Of a stretch of DNA of 64,000 bases, positions 17,577 to 32,120 are shown piece by piece (position 1 is the first letter of the stretch; each line of letters starts with the position of its first letter). A model generated the notes under the pieces. It saw nothing but the letters and a program-made list of their open reading frames with translations. It did no database searches and was not told where the DNA came from. The DNA is from a virus, in IMG/VR virus record IMGVR_UViG_3300008266_000033, positions 32,001 to 96,000 of that record. One strand, given 5' to 3'. Position numbers and translations under genes: made by a program.

Positions 17577-18212
17577 TTATATTATTTTAAATTTCCAAAT
17601 AAACCCATTTGAAGTATTCTGTTTACCATTACAACAAAAAGAAATACCATCTTTACTACTATTAGTTTGCCTAGCAGCTTCATTTATACTATTAAATTCA
17701 GCTAATTTGATTCCATCTAATGAATATTGTTCAACCATTTTTTTATTAGGAGCACTTTCTCTATATTTTAAAATCATTTCTTCAGTAGTAATACGAGGAT
17801 TATTTTGTTTAGTTTGTTTTATTTTATCTATCACCTCTTGTGATCTTGATTTTTTATTCATACTCCACCATTGTTTCATTTTATTAATAGTATCAGGGGT
17901 GTGTTTTTTACCTTTATTTAATAATCCATTCCCACCACTTCCCCCTAAACCAACATTTAATCCTTGTTTAACACTATTATAATGATTTATCCAATATATT
18001 TCACGTTCATCTAATTGTTCAATATTACATTCTTCAATAACTTCAAATTTATGATTTTCAACTCCATATTTTAAAATACTACGATGTAGTTTAATATGTT
18101 GTTTTATTGTTATTATATTAGAATGATAATATCTCCATCTATGTTTAATATTTCTGGATTGGCCAATATATATTTTACCAGTTGGGTTTGTTATTTTATA
18201 AATTCCTATCAT
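17577..18212 (-). CDS. Free-standing GIY-YIG homing endonuclease with NUMOD-type C-terminal domains
   Basis: GIYKITN...YIGQS, R, E.YWI, GKKHT repeat, QYSLDG...F.SI.EAAR. Confidence 0.9.
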   Translation of the reverse strand: MIGIYKITNPTGKIYIGQSRNIKHRWRYYHSNIITIKQHIKLHRSILKYGVENHKFEVIEECNIEQLDEREIYWINHYNSVKQGLNVGLGGSGGNGLLNKGKKHTPDTINKMKQWWSMNKKSRSQEVIDKIKQTKQNNPRITTEEMILKYRESAPNKKMVEQYSLDGIKLAEFNSINEAARQTNSSKDGISFCCNGKQNTSNGFIWKFKII

Positions 18213-19274: not shown

Positions 19275-20249
19275 TTATTTCCAATTACCATTCTGTAAAA
19301 ATTGAGAAATTTTATCTTTTGTATTTGCTGGTTCATAACCTGTTGTATATCCTATTCGTCTTCTAGATTCACCCTTTTCATTTATGAAAAATATTTGTGG
19401 TAGAGCCATAACTTCAGAAATTTCAACAAGTTCTTGAGATTTTGTTTTAGGTTGTATAATTTCTTTATTATTAATAAATTTTTTAACAGGTGGATCAACA
19501 AGAATAAACTTAAATGAAACTAAATTTGTATCATAAGTTGTTTTAAATTTATCAAAATGTTTTTTCATTTCAATAGCTAACCCACAACTATTATCATAAA
19601 ATAAACATATTGTTTTTTTATTTCTAAAACTCAATAATTCTTTTTGTCTTTTACTTAATGGTAAAAACTTTGATTCATGAATTTTAATTCTAGCTTCTCT
19701 TTCATTATGTTCTTTTTTTACTTTTTCAAAAATTTTTCGTTCTTCTTCACTAAGAGTTTGTGAATAAACTGTTTGGGAAAAAGAAAATATAAAACTTACT
19801 AAAAAAAATAATGTTAAAGTTTTATTGAAAATAGAATTATTAAAACTAGTCATAAAATTACGTTTAAATTTTATCCAATTGTATTTAGTTGAACGTTTAA
19901 ATCTTTCTATATCAATATCAAATCTCATACGTCTTCCTATAGGATAAGAAACTTTAAGTAGTTCACGTTTTAATTTAGGGTATTTTTTGAATAAAGTAAT
20001 AAATTTTAGTTGACTTGGGTAACTACAAAAATCAAATTTACCATCTTCAAAATGAGCTAATTCTTGAGTTGAAGGAGTAAATTTATCTAAAAACTTAATA
20101 TCTACACCTCCTTCCAATAAATTACGTTTTAAAACTACCCAATTATCTGAACCTACGTTAACTGCACTTTCATAGAAATTATCCATTGCGGTATTAAGTT
20201 TAATCGAAACTTTTACCTTACTTTCATAAAGAAAATTTAGTGTTTTCAT
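19275..20249 (-). CDS. Hypothetical membrane or secreted protein with C-terminal thioredoxin-like fold
   Basis: Internal hydrophobic segment TLTLFFLVSFIFSFSQ; FYDNSCG and V.ALPQIFFINEKGE. Confidence 0.55.
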   Translation of the reverse strand: MKTLNFLYESKVKVSIKLNTAMDNFYESAVNVGSDNWVVLKRNLLEGGVDIKFLDKFTPSTQELAHFEDGKFDFCSYPSQLKFITLFKKYPKLKRELLKVSYPIGRRMRFDIDIERFKRSTKYNWIKFKRNFMTSFNNSIFNKTLTLFFLVSFIFSFSQTVYSQTLSEEERKIFEKVKKEHNEREARIKIHESKFLPLSKRQKELLSFRNKKTICLFYDNSCGLAIEMKKHFDKFKTTYDTNLVSFKFILVDPPVKKFINNKEIIQPKTKSQELVEISEVMALPQIFFINEKGESRRRIGYTTGYEPANTKDKISQFLQNGNWK

Positions 20250-20254
20250 AGTTT

Positions 20255-20419
20255 TTATTTTTTAGGGATTTTGTATGCAAGTATTGTTGCGATTGTAAGT
20301 TTTAAAACAATGCATGTAAAAATTACTAACACACATATAGGAAAAAATTCACCTAATAATGTATCGAAATGTGAATGTTCACTTATATAATCAATATTAC
20401 TTAAATTTGAAGATTTCAT
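20255..20419 (-). CDS. Small single-TM protein (54 aa, not in the ORF track)
   Basis: Hand-translated MKSSNLSNIDYISEHSHFDTLLGEFFPICVLVIFTCIVLKLTIATILAYKIPKK*, downstream of a promoter motif. Confidence 0.5.
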   Translation of the reverse strand: MKSSNLSNIDYISEHSHFDTLLGEFFPICVLVIFTCIVLKLTIATILAYKIPKK

Positions 20420-20447
20420 ATAAGTATTTTTTATTAATTATCTTGAC

Positions 20448-20480
20448 ATAAAGATACGAAAGGCCTCTTGCGAGGCCAAA
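20448..20480 (-). promoter_or_regulatory. Bacteroidota-type promoter with a hairpin in the spacer (may also terminate the endolysin transcript)
   Basis: Minus strand TTTGGCCTCGCAAGAGGCCTTTCGTATCTTTA; GGCCTC/GAGGCC stem. Confidence 0.55.
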
Positions 20481-20504
20481 CTATAATACACGATATGTAA
20501 TTTT

Positions 20505-21041
20505 TTATAAATTTACATATGTAGTTCCTGGGATAAAGTTTTTTGCTTGATGTTTTGGTAATAAAGTTCTCCAAGTATGACCAAATGTTTTTTCAAAATG
20601 AGGTCTATCTTTAAAAGATTTCCAATCTCCCCCCCAAACCCAGTTATGTTTTTTAAAAATATTTACTACTTCCATCCAATCTGCTTTTCCATCTTTATCA
20701 AAATCAACATTAGTTTCCCAAGACACTGATTCAAAAGTTCCATCACTATTAGTATCTTTAAGTAATACTATATCAAGTGCTAAACCATAATTGTGTATAG
20801 ATTGACCTCCTTTAGCTTTAGTTACTATACCTAACTTATTTCCTTTAGAATCATATAGTTTAGTTCTTCCTCTTGAATATATTTCATTTTGTTCTTCAAA
20901 AGTTCTTAATGTATAAGCAAATCGACATATTGCTTTGCCTGATAAAGCAGGAACTATTTCATTTTCATAAATGTTTTTTACTTCTTGTCTTACTGCTGGG
21001 TGTAAGGTTTCGATTCTTTGTAATGTAATTTGGTCTTTCAT
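20505..21041 (-). CDS. Endolysin, M15 family peptidase (L-Ala-D-Glu peptidase-like)
   Basis: LRTFEEQ, SIHNYGLALD, WGGDW, DRPHFE. Confidence 0.9.
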   Translation of the reverse strand: MKDQITLQRIETLHPAVRQEVKNIYENEIVPALSGKAICRFAYTLRTFEEQNEIYSRGRTKLYDSKGNKLGIVTKAKGGQSIHNYGLALDIVLLKDTNSDGTFESVSWETNVDFDKDGKADWMEVVNIFKKHNWVWGGDWKSFKDRPHFEKTFGHTWRTLLPKHQAKNFIPGTTYVNL

Positions 21042-21613
21042 AAGTTAACTAGTGTTACTCGTCCTATGACTTGTTTAAATATATTTTTATGGTCTTTATA
21101 ATTGAATTTATACACATAAACCCCTTCCATAATCATTTCATTATTTTTGGTTCTTCCGTTCCATAAATATGTAGAGTCAAAACTTTCAAATATTAATTCA
21201 CCCCACCTATTAAAAATCATTAAATGATAATCTGTTATGTTTAGTGTTTTTATATGAAAATAATCATTTAAATTATCTTCATTTGGAGTAAAAGCATTAG
21301 GAATCCAAACATAACTATCTAAACATAAGATTACTTTTATTACGACTGAAGTATTATCTGTTTTGCAATTATCATTAGAGTAATAAACTGATAGATTATA
21401 TAATCCTTCTTTATTTAATAATAATATTATTTGAGATTCATCTTGATATAATATTGCAGATGAAGGATCTACATTCCATACTGTAGTAAAATATTCAAAA
21501 TTTTCAACATAAAACTTTTTTATAGTATCTCCTTTACATAATTCTATCACATAGTTTTGTGAAAACAAAACATTAGATAGAAAAATTAGAAATACTAATA
21601 AAAATTGTTTCAT
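21038..21613 (-). CDS. Secreted protein with T9SS type B (gliding motility-associated, CHU_C) C-terminal sorting domain
   Basis: Signal peptide ending FSQ; IPNAFTPNEDNLNDYF, IFNRWGELIF, WNG, GVYVY, GRVTL. Confidence 0.88.
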   Translation of the reverse strand: MKQFLLVFLIFLSNVLFSQNYVIELCKGDTIKKFYVENFEYFTTVWNVDPSSAILYQDESQIILLLNKEGLYNLSVYYSNDNCKTDNTSVVIKVILCLDSYVWIPNAFTPNEDNLNDYFHIKTLNITDYHLMIFNRWGELIFESFDSTYLWNGRTKNNEMIMEGVYVYKFNYKDHKNIFKQVIGRVTLVNL

Positions 21614-22182
21614 TAGTTATCACTGTTGAGTGTAGGAGGAGGTGGTAAGGGAGTAATAGTAATAGTTCCGTTTCCTGATCCTTGACACCCATTAACATCT
21701 ATAAAAGTAGCAGTTATAGGATAAACCCCAGGAGCTAATCCTGCAGGATTAAATGTATTACCTACCACACCAACTCCAGCCCAGGTAACTCCTGTTGGAT
21801 TAGAAATTAAAACAAATGGGTCTGAGTTTTGGCATACTACTTGATCTGTAACCACTATATTAAGTAGAGGAACTATAGTAATAGTACTAATACTAGATGA
21901 AGTACATCCGTCTGCATTAGTTACTGTTGTTTCTATATTATATACTCCAGGAGTATTCCAAGTTACTTGAATTTGATCCCCTCCTGAAATAGAGGTAAAA
22001 GGTTGAGCAGGTGTTATGGTAAATGAATATGTAAAAGTAGGATCAATTACTGATGGCCCGTAAATTACAGTAGAACCTACACATTTTTGCTGTCCATCAG
22101 CTACAAATGGAGTAGGAACTTGGGAAAAACCACTTACAGTAAATAGTATTAATGTAGATAATAACAGGAGAAGTTTTTTCAT
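21613..22182 (-). CDS. Secreted Ig/PKD-like beta-sandwich protein
   Basis: Signal peptide ending GFSQ; IQVTWNTPGVY, GC repeats, FNP..L.PG.Y.IT pattern seen in Bacteroidota surface proteins. Confidence 0.7.
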   Translation of the reverse strand: MKKLLLLLSTLILFTVSGFSQVPTPFVADGQQKCVGSTVIYGPSVIDPTFTYSFTITPAQPFTSISGGDQIQVTWNTPGVYNIETTVTNADGCTSSSISTITIVPLLNIVVTDQVVCQNSDPFVLISNPTGVTWAGVGVVGNTFNPAGLAPGVYPITATFIDVNGCQGSGNGTITITPLPPPPTLNSDN

Positions 22183-22227
22183 AAATTTAATTTTGGTTAA
22201 TATTATATTGATAAATATATGTTGATT

Positions 22228-23592
22228 TTAATTCTGATCAGAATAAAGTATAACTGAAGGAAATGGTGTAACTATAATAGGTAATGGGACTGTTCTTGTA
22301 CAACCATTAAATGAAACTAAACTCAATTGGTATGTAGTATTACTTGATGGGGAAACAGTAATACTTTGTGTAGTTTGATTTCCTGGCATCCATAAATAAG
22401 ATTGATAACCATTAGGTGCAGTTAATGTTACAGTTTCTCCTACACATATAGTATCAGGATATGCATCTAAAAATGATTGTGAACATACAGCATCTATATA
22501 AGCATAACCATAGTGTGCACTTTGAGTACAATCTCCTGTAGTAAATTCAGCAGTAACTGCTTGTCCTATATAGTTATCTAAATCTACATTTACTGTACTC
22601 CAAGGTTTATATCTAACACCTGTACATGTAGTTGAGTTAAAAAATCCAGGTAAATTACCTGCTGCAGATACTACAAATTCTGAACATGGAATAACATTAC
22701 CATTTTGATCTCTTAGTAATGCTCTAAAAAAAGGTTGTTCATTAGATGTATGACCAGGATCTTCAAAAACTACAGCATAGCGATAGGTAAAACTATTGTT
22801 GCTTGGAGATACTATAAATGTTTGTGTTAATTGTTCTGCTTGAGAATTAACATTAGCGTCACCTAATCTAACAGAAAATGGTCCTCCTAATGGATCTACT
22901 CTTGGAAAACCACCACATGGATCATTTCCACCTGACATTATAGTATGTCTTCCATTAACTATACCTATTGCTGTTGCATCATAGTTTGGTGTTGGAGCAC
23001 CAATATATGCTCTTGTAGCTAAACCTGTTGTACCAAACCAACCATTAAAATTGTTACTACTAAAACCTATGTTAGTACAACTAGGTTGAGGTATTACTGG
23101 TGTAAACTGTATTCTTAAATCAAATTGAGAGCAGTTAGCAAAATAATTACCCCAAACATAGTTGTCTACTAACACATAGTAAGTTTGACCTGCTTGTAAA
23201 TATTCTACTATTGATGCATTAGCTGTTGATGGATTATATAATGCAAAACCCATACATGCTCCAAATGTTCCTGGACACGCATTAGATAATGTTATTACTG
23301 GATATGCAGTTCCTGTAGCTACTACATCATTTAGTAAGATACTTACATAACCATTTTGTGTAGGAGTGAAACTATATAACCAATCCTGACCTCCATAATA
23401 ATTACCTGTAGCTGTAAATATACAAGGATTAGCTCCTGTATAATCATTTCCGTCTCCACAAGTAGATTGATTATTACCAAAGAATGGTAGAGTTATAGGA
23501 TTAGCAGCTGCTCCAGCGCAAGTATTTGATCCCTGCGCTGAGAGCTTTGAGTAAGCAAATAGTGTAATAAATAGTAAAAGATACTTAAACAT
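22228..23592 (-). CDS. Secreted Bacteroidota adhesin-like protein
   Basis: Signal peptide ending SAQ; SVRLGD, YRYAVVFEDPGH, DC..SAHYGYAYID, C.G..VTLTAP.GY.SYLW, TTQSITVSP. Confidence 0.72.
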   Translation of the reverse strand: MFKYLLLFITLFAYSKLSAQGSNTCAGAAANPITLPFFGNNQSTCGDGNDYTGANPCIFTATGNYYGGQDWLYSFTPTQNGYVSILLNDVVATGTAYPVITLSNACPGTFGACMGFALYNPSTANASIVEYLQAGQTYYVLVDNYVWGNYFANCSQFDLRIQFTPVIPQPSCTNIGFSSNNFNGWFGTTGLATRAYIGAPTPNYDATAIGIVNGRHTIMSGGNDPCGGFPRVDPLGGPFSVRLGDANVNSQAEQLTQTFIVSPSNNSFTYRYAVVFEDPGHTSNEQPFFRALLRDQNGNVIPCSEFVVSAAGNLPGFFNSTTCTGVRYKPWSTVNVDLDNYIGQAVTAEFTTGDCTQSAHYGYAYIDAVCSQSFLDAYPDTICVGETVTLTAPNGYQSYLWMPGNQTTQSITVSPSSNTTYQLSLVSFNGCTRTVPLPIIVTPFPSVILYSDQN

Positions 23593-24303
23593 TTAATGTC
23601 TTATCCCAAGCTGAGATATGTAATCTTGTTAATCCTCTAAATTTATATTTTTTAGCCATCTCCAATGTAAACTGAGTACGCTCATGGAAATCTGTTTGAC
23701 TATCTAAACCAGGCATGCAAACTACATTTTTAAGTGGAATATTAAATGGCTCAATAAAGTCACGGAATATTTCCTTAACATCATCTTCAGTTGAAATAAC
23801 GAACTTAAATTGATAGTTTGAGTGTTCCATGATGCGTTTGATAGCATCAGGATTGATACGTTGTTTTTCAGCTAGACCTGAGTTGGATAGTTTAGGTGAG
23901 CAGTTGATTTGATGGCTTCTTGGTGTCCTTTAATTGTAGGTTCACCACCAGTCCAAATAATGTGGATAGTACCATTTTTAACATCCTCATAAATGCCTTG
24001 TTCTTTCCATTGATCGATTAGATATTGGAAGTCTTTTTCTTCACCTCTCCATAACCATTGAGATGTACTATCGCAGGTCCATGTGGCTTTACCTTCTAGC
24101 TCTAAATCACCTTTGAATATCTCCCCATCTTCTAATGATTTATCTTTCATTAGTTGATTGGCAAACTTACGAGACATACCGCAGGTTAAGTTACAGATTC
24201 CTAAGCGAACAAAGTATGAAGGAATACCCGTAGATATTCCCTCACCTTGTACACTATAAAAGTCTGAGCTTATTAATAGTTTATTTGGATTAATTGCGCT
24301 CAT
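23585..24303 (-). pseudogene. queE: 7-carboxy-7-deazaguanine synthase, split by an internal deletion/frameshift near 23909-23913
   Basis: 5' ORF has FYSVQGEG, FVRL..CNL.C, TGGEP; the -1 frame resumes QINCSPKLSNSG...FKFV...RLH; ETNG segment absent. Confidence 0.85.
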
Positions 24304-25539: not shown

Positions 25540-26004
25540 TTAGTTTTTTATTTTTAAATAATCTTCTATGGTAATTTTAGTATTTCTTTCCAAATAATGA
25601 AATTCTCTATGACAATTTGAGCAGAGAGGAATACATTTTTCAATTTCTTTAAAAGTATCTTCTATAGATTTATATTGCCAAGCATTACCTATTGCTATAG
25701 ATTTGGTGGTAGGATCAATATGATGAAAATCTAAAAGATAATATCTAGTTTCTTTACATTTAGAACAGCATAATGTTTGTTTATATTCATTTACTGTTTC
25801 TTTATATTTTCGTTTAAATTCTTTTTGATATTCTCTCCATTGATCCTTATTCTTATTATAATTAGCTTTAGTAGTTTCTCTTACACATGCTTTACAATAA
25901 TATTCCCACCCATCTTTTTTACTTTTTCTATGATGCCAAAATTCTTCAGTTAATGGTTTATCACTATTACACTTAGTACAATGTTTTATCTCCATAATTG
26001 TCAT
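25540..26004 (-). CDS. Free-standing HNH endonuclease with N-terminal Zn finger
   Basis: CTKC...CKAC; CSKC, LDFHHIDP, LCSNCHREFH. Confidence 0.85.
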   Translation of the reverse strand: MTIMEIKHCTKCNSDKPLTEEFWHHRKSKKDGWEYYCKACVRETTKANYNKNKDQWREYQKEFKRKYKETVNEYKQTLCCSKCKETRYYLLDFHHIDPTTKSIAIGNAWQYKSIEDTFKEIEKCIPLCSNCHREFHYLERNTKITIEDYLKIKN

Positions 26005-31169: not shown

Positions 31170-32120
31170 TTATAAATCTGTCCAATCTGCTGTTGATTTA
31201 GAGTAACTTGTTACTCTCCCAGCAAAGAAATCTTGATGTGTTTTACCACTTGTTAAATGACCAAACCATTCCATTTGTTTTAATAAATTGGGATCAATAT
31301 CATTATACAAAGGATTTAGTCCTAACTCAACCATTTTTTCATTAGCTCTTGCTTTAATGAAATTTTTTAACTGTTCTTTAGTTAAACCCTCAATATTACC
31401 CATTTCAAAAGCTTTATCAATAAAATCAAATTCTAGTTTTACTGATAGCTCACAGGCTTCATTGACTGATTTAATTAATTTCCAAGCATTTAATTCTGGT
31501 TTTTCTTCTAATAACTTTTTAAATAACCAGCAACCTGCTTTTGAATGTAAACTTTCATCTCTTACAGACCATTCAACTATTTGACCCATACCTTTCATTA
31601 AATTTCTAAGCTGAAATGACATTAAAATAGCAAATGAGGAAAATAGGTTTACTCCTTCTGTAAATGCTGAAAATACTGCTAATGAAATTGCTTTTTCTTC
31701 TAGTGTGTTTCCTGGGGTACTGATTAGTCGTTCTATTTTATTTTTAGAAACTTCATCTTCCATAAAGGCTTCAAAATTATCTAATCCTAAAGCCTCATTT
31801 AATAAGGAATATGCTTCTGCATGGATAGATTCAAATGAACCAAAAGTAACAGCCATGTGTTGAATTTCTGGTTTAGGAAACCAATGACTAACTTTAGAGC
31901 TCCAATAATCTTCTACATAGGTTTCAGTTTGAGCAAATGCTCTTAAAATATTACCTATTAGATTCTTTTCAGACTCATTTAATTTAAGTTTCCAATCATT
32001 TATATCTGATGCTAGTGGGACTTCTTCAGGTAACCAATGTACTCTTTGTTGATCTTTTAAAAAATTATATACTTCAGTATATTCAAATGGTTTGTAAAAG
32101 TATCTAGGTTCAGTTATCAT
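31170..32120 (-). CDS. nrdB: Ribonucleotide reductase beta subunit
   Basis: W.PEE, ESIHAEAY, EG..LFSSF, RDESLH, DFFA. Confidence 0.95.
   Translation of the reverse strand: MITEPRYFYKPFEYTEVYNFLKDQQRVHWLPEEVPLASDINDWKLKLNESEKNLIGNILRAFAQTETYVEDYWSSKVSHWFPKPEIQHMAVTFGSFESIHAEAYSLLNEALGLDNFEAFMEDEVSKNKIERLISTPGNTLEEKAISLAVFSAFTEGVNLFSSFAILMSFQLRNLMKGMGQIVEWSVRDESLHSKAGCWLFKKLLEEKPELNAWKLIKSVNEACELSVKLEFDFIDKAFEMGNIEGLTKEQLKNFIKARANEKMVELGLNPLYNDIDPNLLKQMEWFGHLTSGKTHQDFFAGRVTSYSKSTADWTDL

Follow-up and report, generated by a model that had tools for sequence, protein, structure and literature searches.

To our knowledge, the Bacteroidota type IX secretion system (T9SS) is understood as acting strictly in cis, with every cargo carrying its own C-terminal domain (CTD). 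In Tat hitchhiker co-export a partner that lacks a signal is carried along by the signal-bearing protein to which it binds, and the type V pili of Bacteroidota are assembled by strand exchange, with a C-terminal segment mediating assembly. These can serve as mechanistic analogues only; each involves a different machine from the T9SS.

The closest described systems are one-piece type B cargos such as SprB-SprF of Flavobacterium johnsoniae and PG1035-PorP-PorE of Porphyromonas gingivalis (PMC9143113, PMC12618676). In the available parts of these sources, type B CTDs are uncleaved and remain bound to PorP-like barrels at the cell surface (PMC9143113), and in F. johnsoniae there are known orphan type B cargos that use a common shuttle (PMC12618676). 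Phage-encoded T9SS sorting domains, with a presumed hijack of the host system, have been described for Cryophage (Bellas et al. 2020, PMC7468147); as far as the available text of that paper goes, these domains are of type A and sit in cis on enzymes (an endoglucanase, GH39 and a PA14 protein), and a split form, a mini-carrier or a tail are not reported.

Here we describe a locus of a Bacteroidota phage in which a type B CTD and its putative partners are encoded separately. It lies in a 64,000-nucleotide stretch of viral DNA (hereafter the window; positions 32,001 to 96,000 of IMG/VR record IMGVR_UViG_3300008266_000033, a record of 128,411 bp that is 79% complete). Like the one-piece type B cargos, the locus combines Sec signals, an end that matches PF13585 and TIGR04131 (on ORF3), an Ig/PKD stalk and an adhesin-like head, and by this likeness ORF3 would be expected to keep its CTD and to stay at the surface, bound to a PorP-like barrel. 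Unlike them, it distributes head, stalk and CTD over three polypeptides, without a shuttle gene in the phage, and its CTD-less pieces share a conserved terminal tail that is not described in the available parts of PMC9143113 and PMC12618676. A first-pass annotation had supposed that such a module was uncharacterized in lytic-type phages. Our literature search on phage T9SS cargo found nothing on a type B domain, a split form or a tail tag, so the supposition stands for these features; it does not extend to phage T9SS cargo as such, type A examples being in print (PMC7468147, available parts).

Genomic context and layout of the locus

The window is phage DNA: it encodes a sheath, tube, baseplate, family B DNA polymerase, clamp loader and UvsX-like recombinase, together with RNR, GroEL/ES and Que genes, and all 68 window ORFs that passed the filter lie on a single strand. 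The module consists of three co-directional minus-strand ORFs of 454, 189 and 191 aa. Its features and immediate neighbours are listed below with the evidence for each.

20505..21041, minus strand: Peptidase_M15_4 endolysin, context (Peptidase_M15_4, 66.2 bits)
21038..21613, minus strand: ORF3, 191 aa, putative mini-carrier with signal peptide, Ig-like domain and type B T9SS CTD (PF13585, TIGR04131, AF2)
21050..21304, minus strand: ORF3 type B CTD, residues 104-188 (PF13585, TIGR04131)
21323..21556, minus strand: ORF3 Ig-like domain, residues 20-97 (AF2 model, DSSP strands)
21613..22182, minus strand: ORF2, 189 aa, candidate CTD-less tailed cargo (ORF, PKD_4 match below cut-off, relatives, alignment, dN/dS)
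21616..21651, minus strand: ORF2 C-terminal tail, residues 178-189, PLPPPPTLNSDN (ORF, alignment of relatives, motif statistics)
22228..23592, minus strand: ORF1, 454 aa, candidate CTD-less tailed cargo (ORF, AF2 model, structure matches, P0036 alignment, dN/dS)
22231..22266, minus strand: ORF1 C-terminal tail, residues 443-454, PFPSVILYSDQN (motif statistics; low pLDDT, no secondary structure)
23585..24303, minus strand: queE as two ORFs of 143 and 81 aa, context (comparison with an intact 287-aa homologue)

The genes are tightly packed. There is an 8-nt overlap between the ORF1 start and the stop of the C-terminal queE fragment, 45 nt separate ORF1 from ORF2, the ORF2 stop and ORF3 start share TAATG, and the ORF3 stop and endolysin start share ATGA, which bears out the earlier description of a module overlapping queE upstream and the M15 endolysin downstream. 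A 54-aa membrane ORF follows the endolysin. The division of queE into two ORFs is due to a 145-bp deletion relative to the intact 287-aa homologue.

Signal peptides and sorting domains

The first-pass annotation had read each of the three tandem ORFs as starting with a Sec signal peptide ending in Q, and the same pattern was found in all of them: a K-containing n-region, a hydrophobic stretch, small residues at -3 and -1, and Gln at +1. The predicted signal peptides span residues 1-19 of ORF1 (..LSA|Q20), 1-20 of ORF2 (..GFS|Q21) and 1-18 of ORF3 (..LFS|Q19), and an N-terminal helix is modelled by AF2 at residues 2-16 of ORF1 and 2-13 of ORF3. This feature is kept in relatives of the module proteins; Q21 is unchanged in 25/25 aligned ORF2 relatives. 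The signals are of the SPase I type, with Gln instead of Cys at +1, and neither a lipobox nor a membrane anchor was found in ORF1-3. An identity as spanin-type lysis proteins was therefore rejected, despite the position beside the endolysin in the window.

By family models, ORF3 is a T9SS type B CTD cargo, with scores of 70.3 bits against PF13585 CHU_C (cut-off 27; residues 104-178) and 51.9 bits against TIGR04131 (cut-off 35; residues 104-188), and ORF1 and ORF2 are non-members, as expected from the earlier assignment of such a domain to the last ORF only. A type A sorting domain (PF18962 or TIGR04183) was absent from all three proteins in Pfam and NCBIfam, and none of them matched a PHROG lysis family. 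A search of the 128-kb record (79% complete) for a PorP/SprF shuttle gave zero PF11751 matches at E <= 0.1, so that export would need a host shuttle that accepts ORF3.

Domain architecture

ORF1 has zero matches in Pfam, NCBIfam and PHROG. Its AF2 model (pLDDT 88.1, pTM 0.84; pLDDT 52 in the last block) suggests a PPC/collagen-binding-domain-like sandwich (residues 22-165), a CBM/MAM-like jelly roll (170-374), an Ig-like domain (375-442) and a free tail, unstructured in the monomer model (443-454). Structure matches include 1nqd (Z 11.8, rmsd 2.2, 102 residues aligned) and 8xmz (Z 12.2, rmsd 3.3, 130 aligned). ORF2 comprises the signal peptide, two Ig/PKD-like domains and the tail. Its sole match across the three libraries is to PKD_4, whose score of 26.3 bits falls slightly short of the cut-off (27); among its relatives, PF18911 is precomputed on four, and a one-domain relative scores 29.5 bits against PKD_6.

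ORF3 was modelled at pLDDT 94.5. It had been thought to hold little else beside the CTD; instead, residues 20-97 form a complete seven-strand Ig-like domain (DSSP strands 20-25, 30-35, 43-49, 53-57, 61-66, 70-79 and 88-96), its own first strand included. This N-terminal domain and the C-terminal domain of ORF1 are both Ig-like sandwiches in the models, and the alignment places an own P-F-V-A-D first-strand motif at the N-terminus of ORF2. The sole solved chain matched by the ORF3 family profile is the C-terminus of the Aureispira grappling-hook protein GhpA (PDB 9flp; E 3.3e-16, profile positions 98-172), which like ORF3 ends in a type B CTD but is a one-piece cellular protein of 5,898 residues.

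Conservation and origin of the split form

The module is widespread among freshwater phage contigs, and the split form spans myovirus, jumbo and crAss-like backbones. Cargo genes stood next to carrier genes in 18 of 32 viral records (the module's own record plus 31 loci), in keeping with the earlier claim that the genes are phage-borne. Wherever ORF2 and ORF3 both occur, the stop of one and the start of the other overlap or lie <=3 nt apart. Lengths are also kept: 33 of the 35 ORF2 relatives, none of them named, have 182-200 aa, and 40 of the best 150 representatives of the ORF3 family have 170-205 aa. With dN/dS of 0.08-0.26 for ORF1, 0.06-0.40 for ORF2 and 0.025-0.23 for ORF3, the sequences indicate that the split form is held under purifying selection in many phages. 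ORF1 lacks a neighbouring ORF2 or ORF3 in 13/32 records; CHU_C was not found in 5 ORF1-only records, which are just 7-32% complete. Some phages have carriers reduced to signal peptide plus CTD (111 aa).

A fused counterpart is provided by P0036, a 790-aa metagenomic protein with the source name 'gliding motility-associated-like protein'. Residues 6-447 of ORF1 are collinear with its residues 10-454 (48% identity, 97% of ORF1 length); beyond this ORF1-like head P0036 runs into PKD domains and then CHU_C, and its residues 664-789 align with residues 63-189 of ORF3. The domain order of P0036 corresponds to ORF1, Ig/PKD and Ig-CTD, and its length is approximately the sum of the three mature products. 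It differs from the module in being one polypeptide with one signal peptide, in which the tail position continues into PKD, and ORF2 matches its PKD domains weakly. A second case of fission is seen in a tailed 196-aa protein (L060:2834-3424) that is 47% identical to the head of the window phage's own 745-aa SprB-repeat gene.

Among the cellular Bacteroidota sampled, the same domains appear from sequence only inside large proteins. The ORF2 profile gave 139 matches in 3 genomes, all but one in open frames of at least 366 aa. The Ig plus CTD profile matched in 70/401 genomes, and only 4 of the 150 matches listed (of 343) were in frames <350 aa, three of these being at contig ends and one starting at base 31 of its contig. 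Stand-alone tailed proteins and mini-carriers were not seen in the cellular genomes sampled.

The C-terminal tail

The two CTD-less proteins had been noted to end in similar tails, and the relatives extend this to a motif, [ILVFM]-x-[HTS]-[DN] followed by 0-2 residues, that is strictly C-terminal and found on CTD-less members. It is terminal in 42/59 ORF1-family hits of <=470 aa vs 1/45 longer hits, and in 33/35 ORF2-family hits, the two exceptions being truncated (160 and 113 aa). Among the best 150 representatives of the carrier ORF3 it is terminal in none, and the background in the same loci is 3/829 other ORFs. The tail is common to three cargo families: ORF1-like proteins, ORF2-like proteins with one or two Ig domains, and the L060-type head, which has no Pfam hit and is matched by neither cargo profile. 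The two cargos of one genome agree in tail class (SD(Q)N/SDN, YTN/YTD, SHN/SHD, SHD/SHD and WHD/THD). An independent survey started from the carriers, namely 30 small CHU_C ORFs (<=235 aa) taken from 80 additional viral loci, and 23 of them had a tailed ORF with a signal peptide within 3 kb on the same strand. Of the 7 misses, three had neighbours with variant tails (..ITH, ..IFH, ..IYKQ), two lay ~0.5 kb from a contig start and two were fragments. The shared tail is far above chance and confined to proteins without a CTD, and it is genetically linked to the gene for the small CTD protein. It also shares homology with the sequence that, in fused relatives, makes up the linker and first strand of the following PKD domain (PFPNVSFT.., DPVADFSITN..), so its conservation may be partly inherited rather than newly functional; the [HTS][DN] end is conserved among proteins just 25-40% identical, while the preceding linker is variable.

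A multimer fold of ORF2(21-189) with ORF3(20-191) scored 0.55 (runs 0.53, 0.57 and 0.55), vs 0.00 for the best of 3 controls, with >=85% of contacts agreeing between runs and partner pLDDT >=81. The mark used is reached by 58/80 solved complexes and 2/110 mismatched pairs, a calibration that is rough here as our own alignments were used; scores from the mark up to 0.60 comprise only 7/80 solved complexes, yet both passing mismatched pairs. Passes at 0.55 are wrong more often than they are right, save where the pairing was already likely. The model lends weak support to direct ORF2-ORF3 contact. The fold gave no interface, and hence nothing points to the tail as the part touching ORF3. The first-pass idea of C-terminal strand complementation fared less well in its strict form. 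Strand exchange needs an acceptor domain missing a strand, and the ORF3 Ig domain is modelled as complete, leaving no vacant slot for the tail, while the 111-aa carriers have no Ig domain at all. Donor-strand or strand-exchange assembly, as in chaperone-usher or type V pili, is not supported on this basis; edge-strand addition is conceivable.

Discussion

Our leading, if tentative, interpretation is that the three genes are a phage-borne split cargo module for the host T9SS, with ORF1 and ORF2 displayed via ORF3 through docking of their tails. The module would have descended from an ordinary one-piece type B adhesin-like cargo, with ORF1 as the head, ORF2 as two Ig/PKD-type stalk domains and ORF3 as the last Ig domain plus type B CTD. 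After Sec export, the host T9SS would take ORF3, and a host PorP/SprF-like shuttle would hold it at the cell surface. ORF1 and ORF2 would be surface-bound solely through non-covalent attachment to ORF3, the tail being the putative docking element, and the export domain would therefore act in trans. Late in infection the phage would in this way have the infected cell display a lectin-like binding head, which may serve to mask receptors or exclude superinfection, to mediate adhesion, or to aid the breakdown of the envelope.

Alternatively, the proteins may act independently, with ORF3 alone using the T9SS. It might, for instance, be a decoy: by taking up host PorP/SprF-like shuttles or the translocon it would lower display of the host type B adhesins that are phage receptors. 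ORF1 and ORF2 would then be periplasmic or released only at lysis, and the tail would be a fission leftover kept for folding or stability. We consider this unlikely, though a serious contender. It would account for the alignment of the tail with the next-domain start in fused relatives, an ORF3 Ig domain that needs no additional strand, the records with ORF1 alone, the 111-aa carriers and the weak fold support. It sits less easily with a terminal [HTS][DN] kept while the linker varies, the same tail on three unrelated cargo families, the excess of tailed neighbours of small carriers over the background, the translational coupling of ORF2 and ORF3 everywhere both occur, and the agreement in tail class within genomes. 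Being short, strictly terminal and family-independent, the tail resembles a targeting tag, and the phage encodes no shuttle; it may thus signal sorting or docking to some component of the host and not to ORF3, with a PorP/SprF-like barrel, PorV and other T9SS-associated proteins as candidates and the carrier linked only because both act at the same machine. This seems to us distinctly improbable, because of the tight operon coupling with the carrier, the weak support for direct ORF2-ORF3 contact and the cellular genomes sampled, where a host receptor would be left without a known host client.

The neighbouring endolysin raises the prospect that the module belongs to the lysis apparatus, being produced together with the endolysin and helping to breach or detach the outer membrane or surface layer in place of spanins, which we do not know from Bacteroidota phages. 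The overlap of the ORF3 stop with the M15 endolysin start and the 54-aa membrane ORF fit this role, as does a clade (L004/L017) in which a Phage_lysozyme gene and a Peptidase_M15_3 gene flank the module and small membrane ORFs are present. These records (60-64% complete) have a crAss-type tail ring gene, and a search for the window's sheath and DNA polymerase found homologues of neither in them, so that the link to peptidoglycan hydrolases appears on two backbones and with different hydrolase families. However, in nine further loci (L019, L020, L022, L024, L025, L027, L030, L031 and L033) the module is found beside thymidylate synthase, proteases, a lyase, nucleases and folE/thioredoxin, with no endolysin within 4 kb save a weak opposite-strand GH19 hit in L024. 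The coupling to an endolysin proposed at first pass thus applies to the window and the L004/L017 clade and not to the remaining annotated loci that bear the module. With folds of binding modules rather than membrane-active proteins and neither lipobox nor anchor, a lysis role has a low probability in our view. An artefact, in which the ORFs would be remnants of a single dead host gene or the region would have been wrongly assembled onto host DNA, is barely credible. Collinearity with the fused 790-aa protein does look like a broken gene, the genome has other broken genes (queE, and the 745-aa SprB-repeat gene with half a CTD out of frame), and positions 22001-24000 have a GC content of 0.336 and a GC skew of +0.02 vs 0.26-0.33 and mostly negative skew elsewhere. 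Against this, every one of the pieces comes with a start codon and a signal peptide of its own, lengths are kept across dozens of relatives, dN/dS is well below 1, and the junctions are bridged by contigs of other public runs (X1-X4, one of which may be the sample of origin): ORF3/endolysin by X2 record 10 (20447-21226, 0 differences), X3 record 18 and X4 record 26; ORF2/ORF3 by X1 record 3 (21362-21713, 0 differences) and X3 record 19; and queE/ORF1 by X3 record 23 (34 differences). Both host-gene decay and a chimeric join had been raised at first pass, and neither was seen.

Returning to a split cargo module, a more general proposal is possible if rather doubtful: that the type B export domain works in trans, a ~190-aa Ig plus CTD carrier moving folded CTD-less proteins through the T9SS and holding them at the surface; that the docking signal is a four-to-six-residue tag, [ILVFM]-x-[HTS]-[DN]; and that Bacteroidota phages, jumbo and crAss-like phages among them, have repeatedly divided adhesin genes of their hosts into tagged heads and a carrier, as a kit for redecorating the infected-cell surface. 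In our literature search no folded passenger was reported to cross the T9SS by non-covalent attachment. If the proposal is true, the translocon would move non-covalent complexes whose passengers are marked by a tiny terminal tag, hitchhiking would, provided that cellular analogues exist, be a general and undescribed mode of type IX secretion, and the tag and carrier would be a minimal portable pair for surface display in Bacteroidota. The module is small and directly testable in Flavobacterium johnsoniae. As the literature consulted in part has many Flavobacterium phages needing gliding or T9SS surface proteins to adsorb, the module may bear on superinfection exclusion and phage-resistance trade-offs. 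If the module works as proposed, lytic phages, and not prophages alone, would reprogramme the host surface via the host's own secretion machine.

Gene layout and genomic setting

Three tandem genes for predicted secreted proteins make up the module. Each product starts with a Sec-type signal peptide, with cleavage predicted between LSA and Q in ORF1, GFS and Q in ORF2, and LFS and Q in ORF3, placing Gln at +1.

23592..22228, minus strand, ORF1 (454 aa)
22182..21613, minus strand, ORF2 (189 aa)
21613..21038, minus strand, ORF3 (191 aa)

The junctions match those described in the first-pass annotation: the ATG of ORF1 overlaps the end of a queE fragment, TAATG is common to ORF2 and ORF3, and ATGA is common to ORF3 and the M15 endolysin gene. 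The intergenic gap between ORF1 and ORF2 is 45 nt. HMM searches confined the type B type IX secretion system (T9SS) C-terminal domain (CTD) to ORF3, again as described, with 70.3 bits for CHU_C (PF13585; cut-off 27) and 51.9 bits for TIGR04131 (cut-off 35). ORF1 had no match in Pfam, NCBIfam or PHROGs; the best Pfam match of ORF2 was PKD_4 at 26.3 bits, below the cut-off of 27, and PHROGs yielded nothing for ORF2 or ORF3 either. Among 50,697 deposited phage records, tblastn with ORF1 found no match, ORF3 matched three deposited records, and the endolysin was the only match by blastn.

The window comes from a viral record of 128,411 bp that is 79% complete (CheckV). It encodes sheath, tube and baseplate proteins, a family B polymerase, clamp loader, UvsX-like recombinase, RNR, GroEL/ES and queuosine genes, and coding is on one strand for 68/68 ORFs passing the filter; this gene set and coding pattern therefore indicate a large lytic-type myovirus. 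Upstream of the module, a deletion of 145 bp, judged against an intact 287-aa homologue in another viral locus (L003:438-1301; 93% DNA identity), divides queE into ORFs of 143 and 81 aa (23585-24303, minus strand). In metagenome contigs the depth over these positions is 10-50 times that of the flanks, and a variant skipping 4 nt at 23913-23918 is present in three runs. L003 carries a 92%-identical ORF1 between queE and folE, without ORF2, ORF3 or endolysin. The interval 22001-24000, over ORF1, has a GC content of 0.336 and a GC skew of +0.02; elsewhere the GC content is 0.26-0.33 and the skew is mostly negative, a difference that fits later acquisition of ORF1.

Two ORFs directly follow the endolysin gene (19275-20419, minus strand): a holin candidate of 54 aa that has a single hydrophobic span, and one of 324 aa in which a hydrophobic segment lies internally and a thioredoxin-like domain is weakly matched (21.9 bits, under the cut-off). 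Homing endonuclease genes of GIY-YIG and HNH type (17577-18212 and 25540-26004, minus strand) sit amid folE/MazG-like and queuosine genes. Outside the window, the phage has a second T9SS-type gene (G000:C1:16166-18573 of the full record, minus strand), whose 745-aa product combines a signal peptide (..SAQ) and a head domain with four SprB repeats and PKD. The gene stops just ahead of a CHU_C remnant in a different frame (profile positions 29-85 only), and we therefore regard it as a one-piece cargo whose export domain is damaged.

A conserved C-terminal tail on putative cargo proteins

The earlier remark that ORF1 and ORF2 end in similar tails was borne out and, once extended, became our main result. 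The motif [ILVFM]-x-[HTS]-[DN], with 0-2 further residues at the C-terminus, ends 42 of 59 ORF1-family matches of at most 470 aa versus 1 of 45 longer ones, the misses in this family being fragments or near-variants (IYKN, LHSE, IHEN). It also ends 33/35 ORF2 relatives (both misses are truncated), 0/150 ORF3 representatives and 3/829 other ORFs of the same loci. The two cargo tails in any one genome belong to the same class. The tail recurs on a third cargo family, dissimilar to both ORF1 and ORF2 and unmatched in Pfam, and on a one-domain 113-aa cargo. When we started instead from the small CTD-bearing carriers, using 80 independently fetched viral loci, a tailed signal-peptide ORF stood within 3 kb on the same strand beside 23 of the 30 CHU_C ORFs of at most 235 aa; the seven misses comprised three with variant-tailed neighbours, two at contig starts and two fragments.

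Conservation and genuineness of the module

ORF1-like genes of ~450 aa are numerous (57-96% identity), 33 of 35 ORF2 relatives measure 182-200 aa, and 40 of the best 150 ORF3 representatives measure 170-205 aa. Across 32 viral records (the phage's own and 31 loci), cargo and carrier are adjacent in 18, ORF1 occurs alone in 13 and a fragment in one; the gene orders seen are ORF1-ORF2-ORF3, ORF2-ORF3-ORF1 and ORF3-ORF1. CHU_C was not found in five ORF1-only records, but these are just 7-32% complete and we draw nothing from this result. The apparent truncation of ORF1-like genes in four loci (L023, L024, L027 and L028) was dismissed as an effect of calling ORFs from ATG starts only, as the frame is open upstream and has a signal peptide.

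Pairwise dN/dS was 0.08-0.26 for ORF1, 0.06-0.40 for ORF2 and 0.025-0.23 for ORF3, which together with separate signal peptides and conserved lengths rules out decay of a gene into fragments. Contigs from other public runs, one of them possibly the source sample, run across the ORF3/endolysin and ORF2/ORF3 junctions with zero differences and argue against a chimeric join; the ORF1-ORF2 gap (about 22120-22346) is spanned by none of the pieces listed from other runs. The module thus held up against the two sequence-level concerns raised at first pass.

Its distribution shows the module to be mobile between phage backbones. In the L004/L017 clade, where ORF1 is 76-82% identical, a crAss-type tail ring gene is present, and a search of the clade's records, which are 60-64% complete, for the window's sheath and polymerase found homologues of neither. 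L031 has the window's polymerase and folE/thioredoxin neighbourhood in common, and L024, a complete 322-kb jumbo phage, has the sheath in common.

Surroundings vary between loci. At L004:5529-10709 and its L017 equivalent, on a contig with a crAss-type tail ring, the module lies between Phage_lysozyme and Peptidase_M15_3 genes; an additional 155-aa signal-peptide ORF without tail sits between ORF1 and ORF2, and next come two small membrane ORFs and an N-terminally anchored ORF of 195 aa. L030:8395-9741, roughly 1 kb downstream of the module, encodes a 448-aa phage protein that combines PD40 beta-propeller repeats with an OmpA domain, an architecture resembling that of the T9SS component PorE. 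In larger phages (L020, L022, L033, L025) the module lies within an island of degradative-enzyme genes (L020:7309-9078, L022:3756-5300, L033:9087-11357, L025:7806-10088, L025:7176-7757) for a chondroitinase-B-like lyase, a papain-like protease with Big_7 domains, S8 subtilases and a non-specific endonuclease. The three island proteins inspected at the N-terminus (L022:3756-5300, L022:7084-9381, L033:9087-11357) have a signal-peptide-like start.

Fused relatives in cellular and metagenomic sequences

Among 104 ORF1 relatives, a 790-aa metagenomic 'gliding motility-associated-like protein' (P0036) is 48% identical to ORF1 6-447 and continues into PKD domains and a CTD, its last 126 residues aligning with ORF3 63-189. 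A second fission-type case pairs a tailed 196-aa protein of another phage (L060:2834-3424) with the head of the window phage's own 745-aa SprB-repeat gene (47% identity). For the ORF2-type domain pair, three cellular Bacteroidota genomes yielded 139 matches, all but one in frames of at least 366 aa. The Ig+CTD unit was found in 70 of 401 cellular Bacteroidota genomes; among the 150 matches listed, four lay in frames below 350 aa, and all four were rejected as stand-alone carriers, being contig-end truncations (one at base 31 of its contig). A stand-alone ORF2 was sought in species-representative genomes with three weak partial matches only, and ORF2 as sole query added no viral locus. Within the genomes sampled, the split form is a phage trait.

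Predicted structures and possible cargo-carrier binding

The AlphaFold2 model of ORF1 (50-row alignment, pLDDT 88.1, pTM 0.84) comprises a domain resembling collagen-binding/PPC sandwiches (22-165; 1nqd, Z 11.8, rmsd 2.2, 102 aligned), one resembling carbohydrate-binding/MAM jelly rolls (170-374; 8xmz, Z 12.2, rmsd 3.3, 130 aligned; CBM61 2xom, Z 11.6), an Ig-like domain (375-442) and twelve unstructured final residues (pLDDT 52). A match of the N-terminal domain to the lysozyme inhibitor PliG (Z 10.5) fell below the collagen-binding/PPC matches (Z 11.2-11.8), and we treat it as a common fold, not a function. An Atlas feature search with the jelly roll returned unnamed clusters only. ORF2 consists of two Ig/PKD-type domains, and ORF3 (pLDDT 94.5) has a complete seven-strand Ig domain (20-97) followed by the CTD sandwich. 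No catalytic domain was recognised in the module products, which have the look of a binding head, a stalk segment and an anchor segment.

Co-folding of ORF2 (21-189) with ORF3 (20-191), with a family alignment for each, scored 0.55 (runs 0.53, 0.57 and 0.55) against 0.00 for the best of three controls; at least 85% of contacts agreed between runs and partner pLDDT was at least 81. The calibration mark was reached by 58/80 solved complexes and 2/110 mismatched pairs, and scores of 0.60 or less accounted for only 7/80 solved complexes and both passing mismatches, counts that are only rough here because self-made alignments were used. The output is a pair score without an interface, in which tail contact is not visible, and gives weak support to direct ORF2-ORF3 binding. 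As to the C-terminal strand complementation proposed at first pass, the modelled Ig domain of ORF3 supplies its first strand itself, and some carriers (L025:5418-5753, L026:5418-5753, L033:728-1063; 111 aa) consist of signal peptide and type B CTD only, so classic missing-strand complementation is unsupported. The 111-aa carriers of L025 and L026 adjoin a tailed 383-aa cargo (..IEHD).

Discussion

The only phage-encoded T9SS cargo that we found reported in the full-text literature, supplements aside, is that of 'Cryophage', whose enzymes bear type A domains and which was termed unique there (PMC7468147). The window's module differs from it in its type B carrier and split cargo. In the same literature we found nothing on type B carriers in phages or split cargo, nor on piggyback, hitchhiker, trans-acting CTD or passenger export via the T9SS.

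We tentatively favour, at a little under even confidence, a conserved phage module of split cargo and carrier that serves the host T9SS and docks through a C-terminal tail. The original observation of the module is confirmed and extended (gene layout, CTD matches, tail survey); its interpretation is supported in part, for the separate conserved genes and for the tail as a conserved feature, and not for strict strand complementation or general endolysin coupling.

In fused relatives, the tail positions correspond to the linker plus the opening strand of the PKD domain that comes next (..PFPNVSFT.., ..DPVADFSITN..), so the tail is inherited material and part of its conservation may be passive. 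This favours the idea, which we rate as unlikely, that ORF1-ORF3 act independently and the tail is vestigial. That a host factor reads the tail seems less probable again. A peptidoglycan hydrolase flanks the module on two backbones, with differing enzyme families: M15_4 in the window, and Phage_lysozyme upstream with M15_3 downstream in the L004 clade. These arrangements are suggestive of a link to lysis, and the endolysin coupling noted at first pass stands there. It fails in nine other annotated module loci, whose neighbours are instead thymidylate synthase, subtilases, a chondroitinase-B-like lyase, a papain-like protease, GH16, nucleases and an OmpA/PD40 protein; since these differ, the link is not general, and we consider it quite improbable that the module is a lysis accessory. 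An artefact is hardly credible given the proteins' own signal peptides, conserved lengths, dN/dS and junction-bridging contigs.

A split cargo/carrier module might serve in receptor masking or superinfection exclusion, in adhesion, or in envelope breakdown. Type B CTDs remain uncleaved and bound to surface PorP-like barrels (PMC9143113), and shuttle choice is specific, one shuttle being able to serve several orphan cargos (PMC12618676). Since no PorP/SprF gene was found in the phage (128,411-bp record, 79% complete), ORF3 would have to be accepted by a shuttle of the host.
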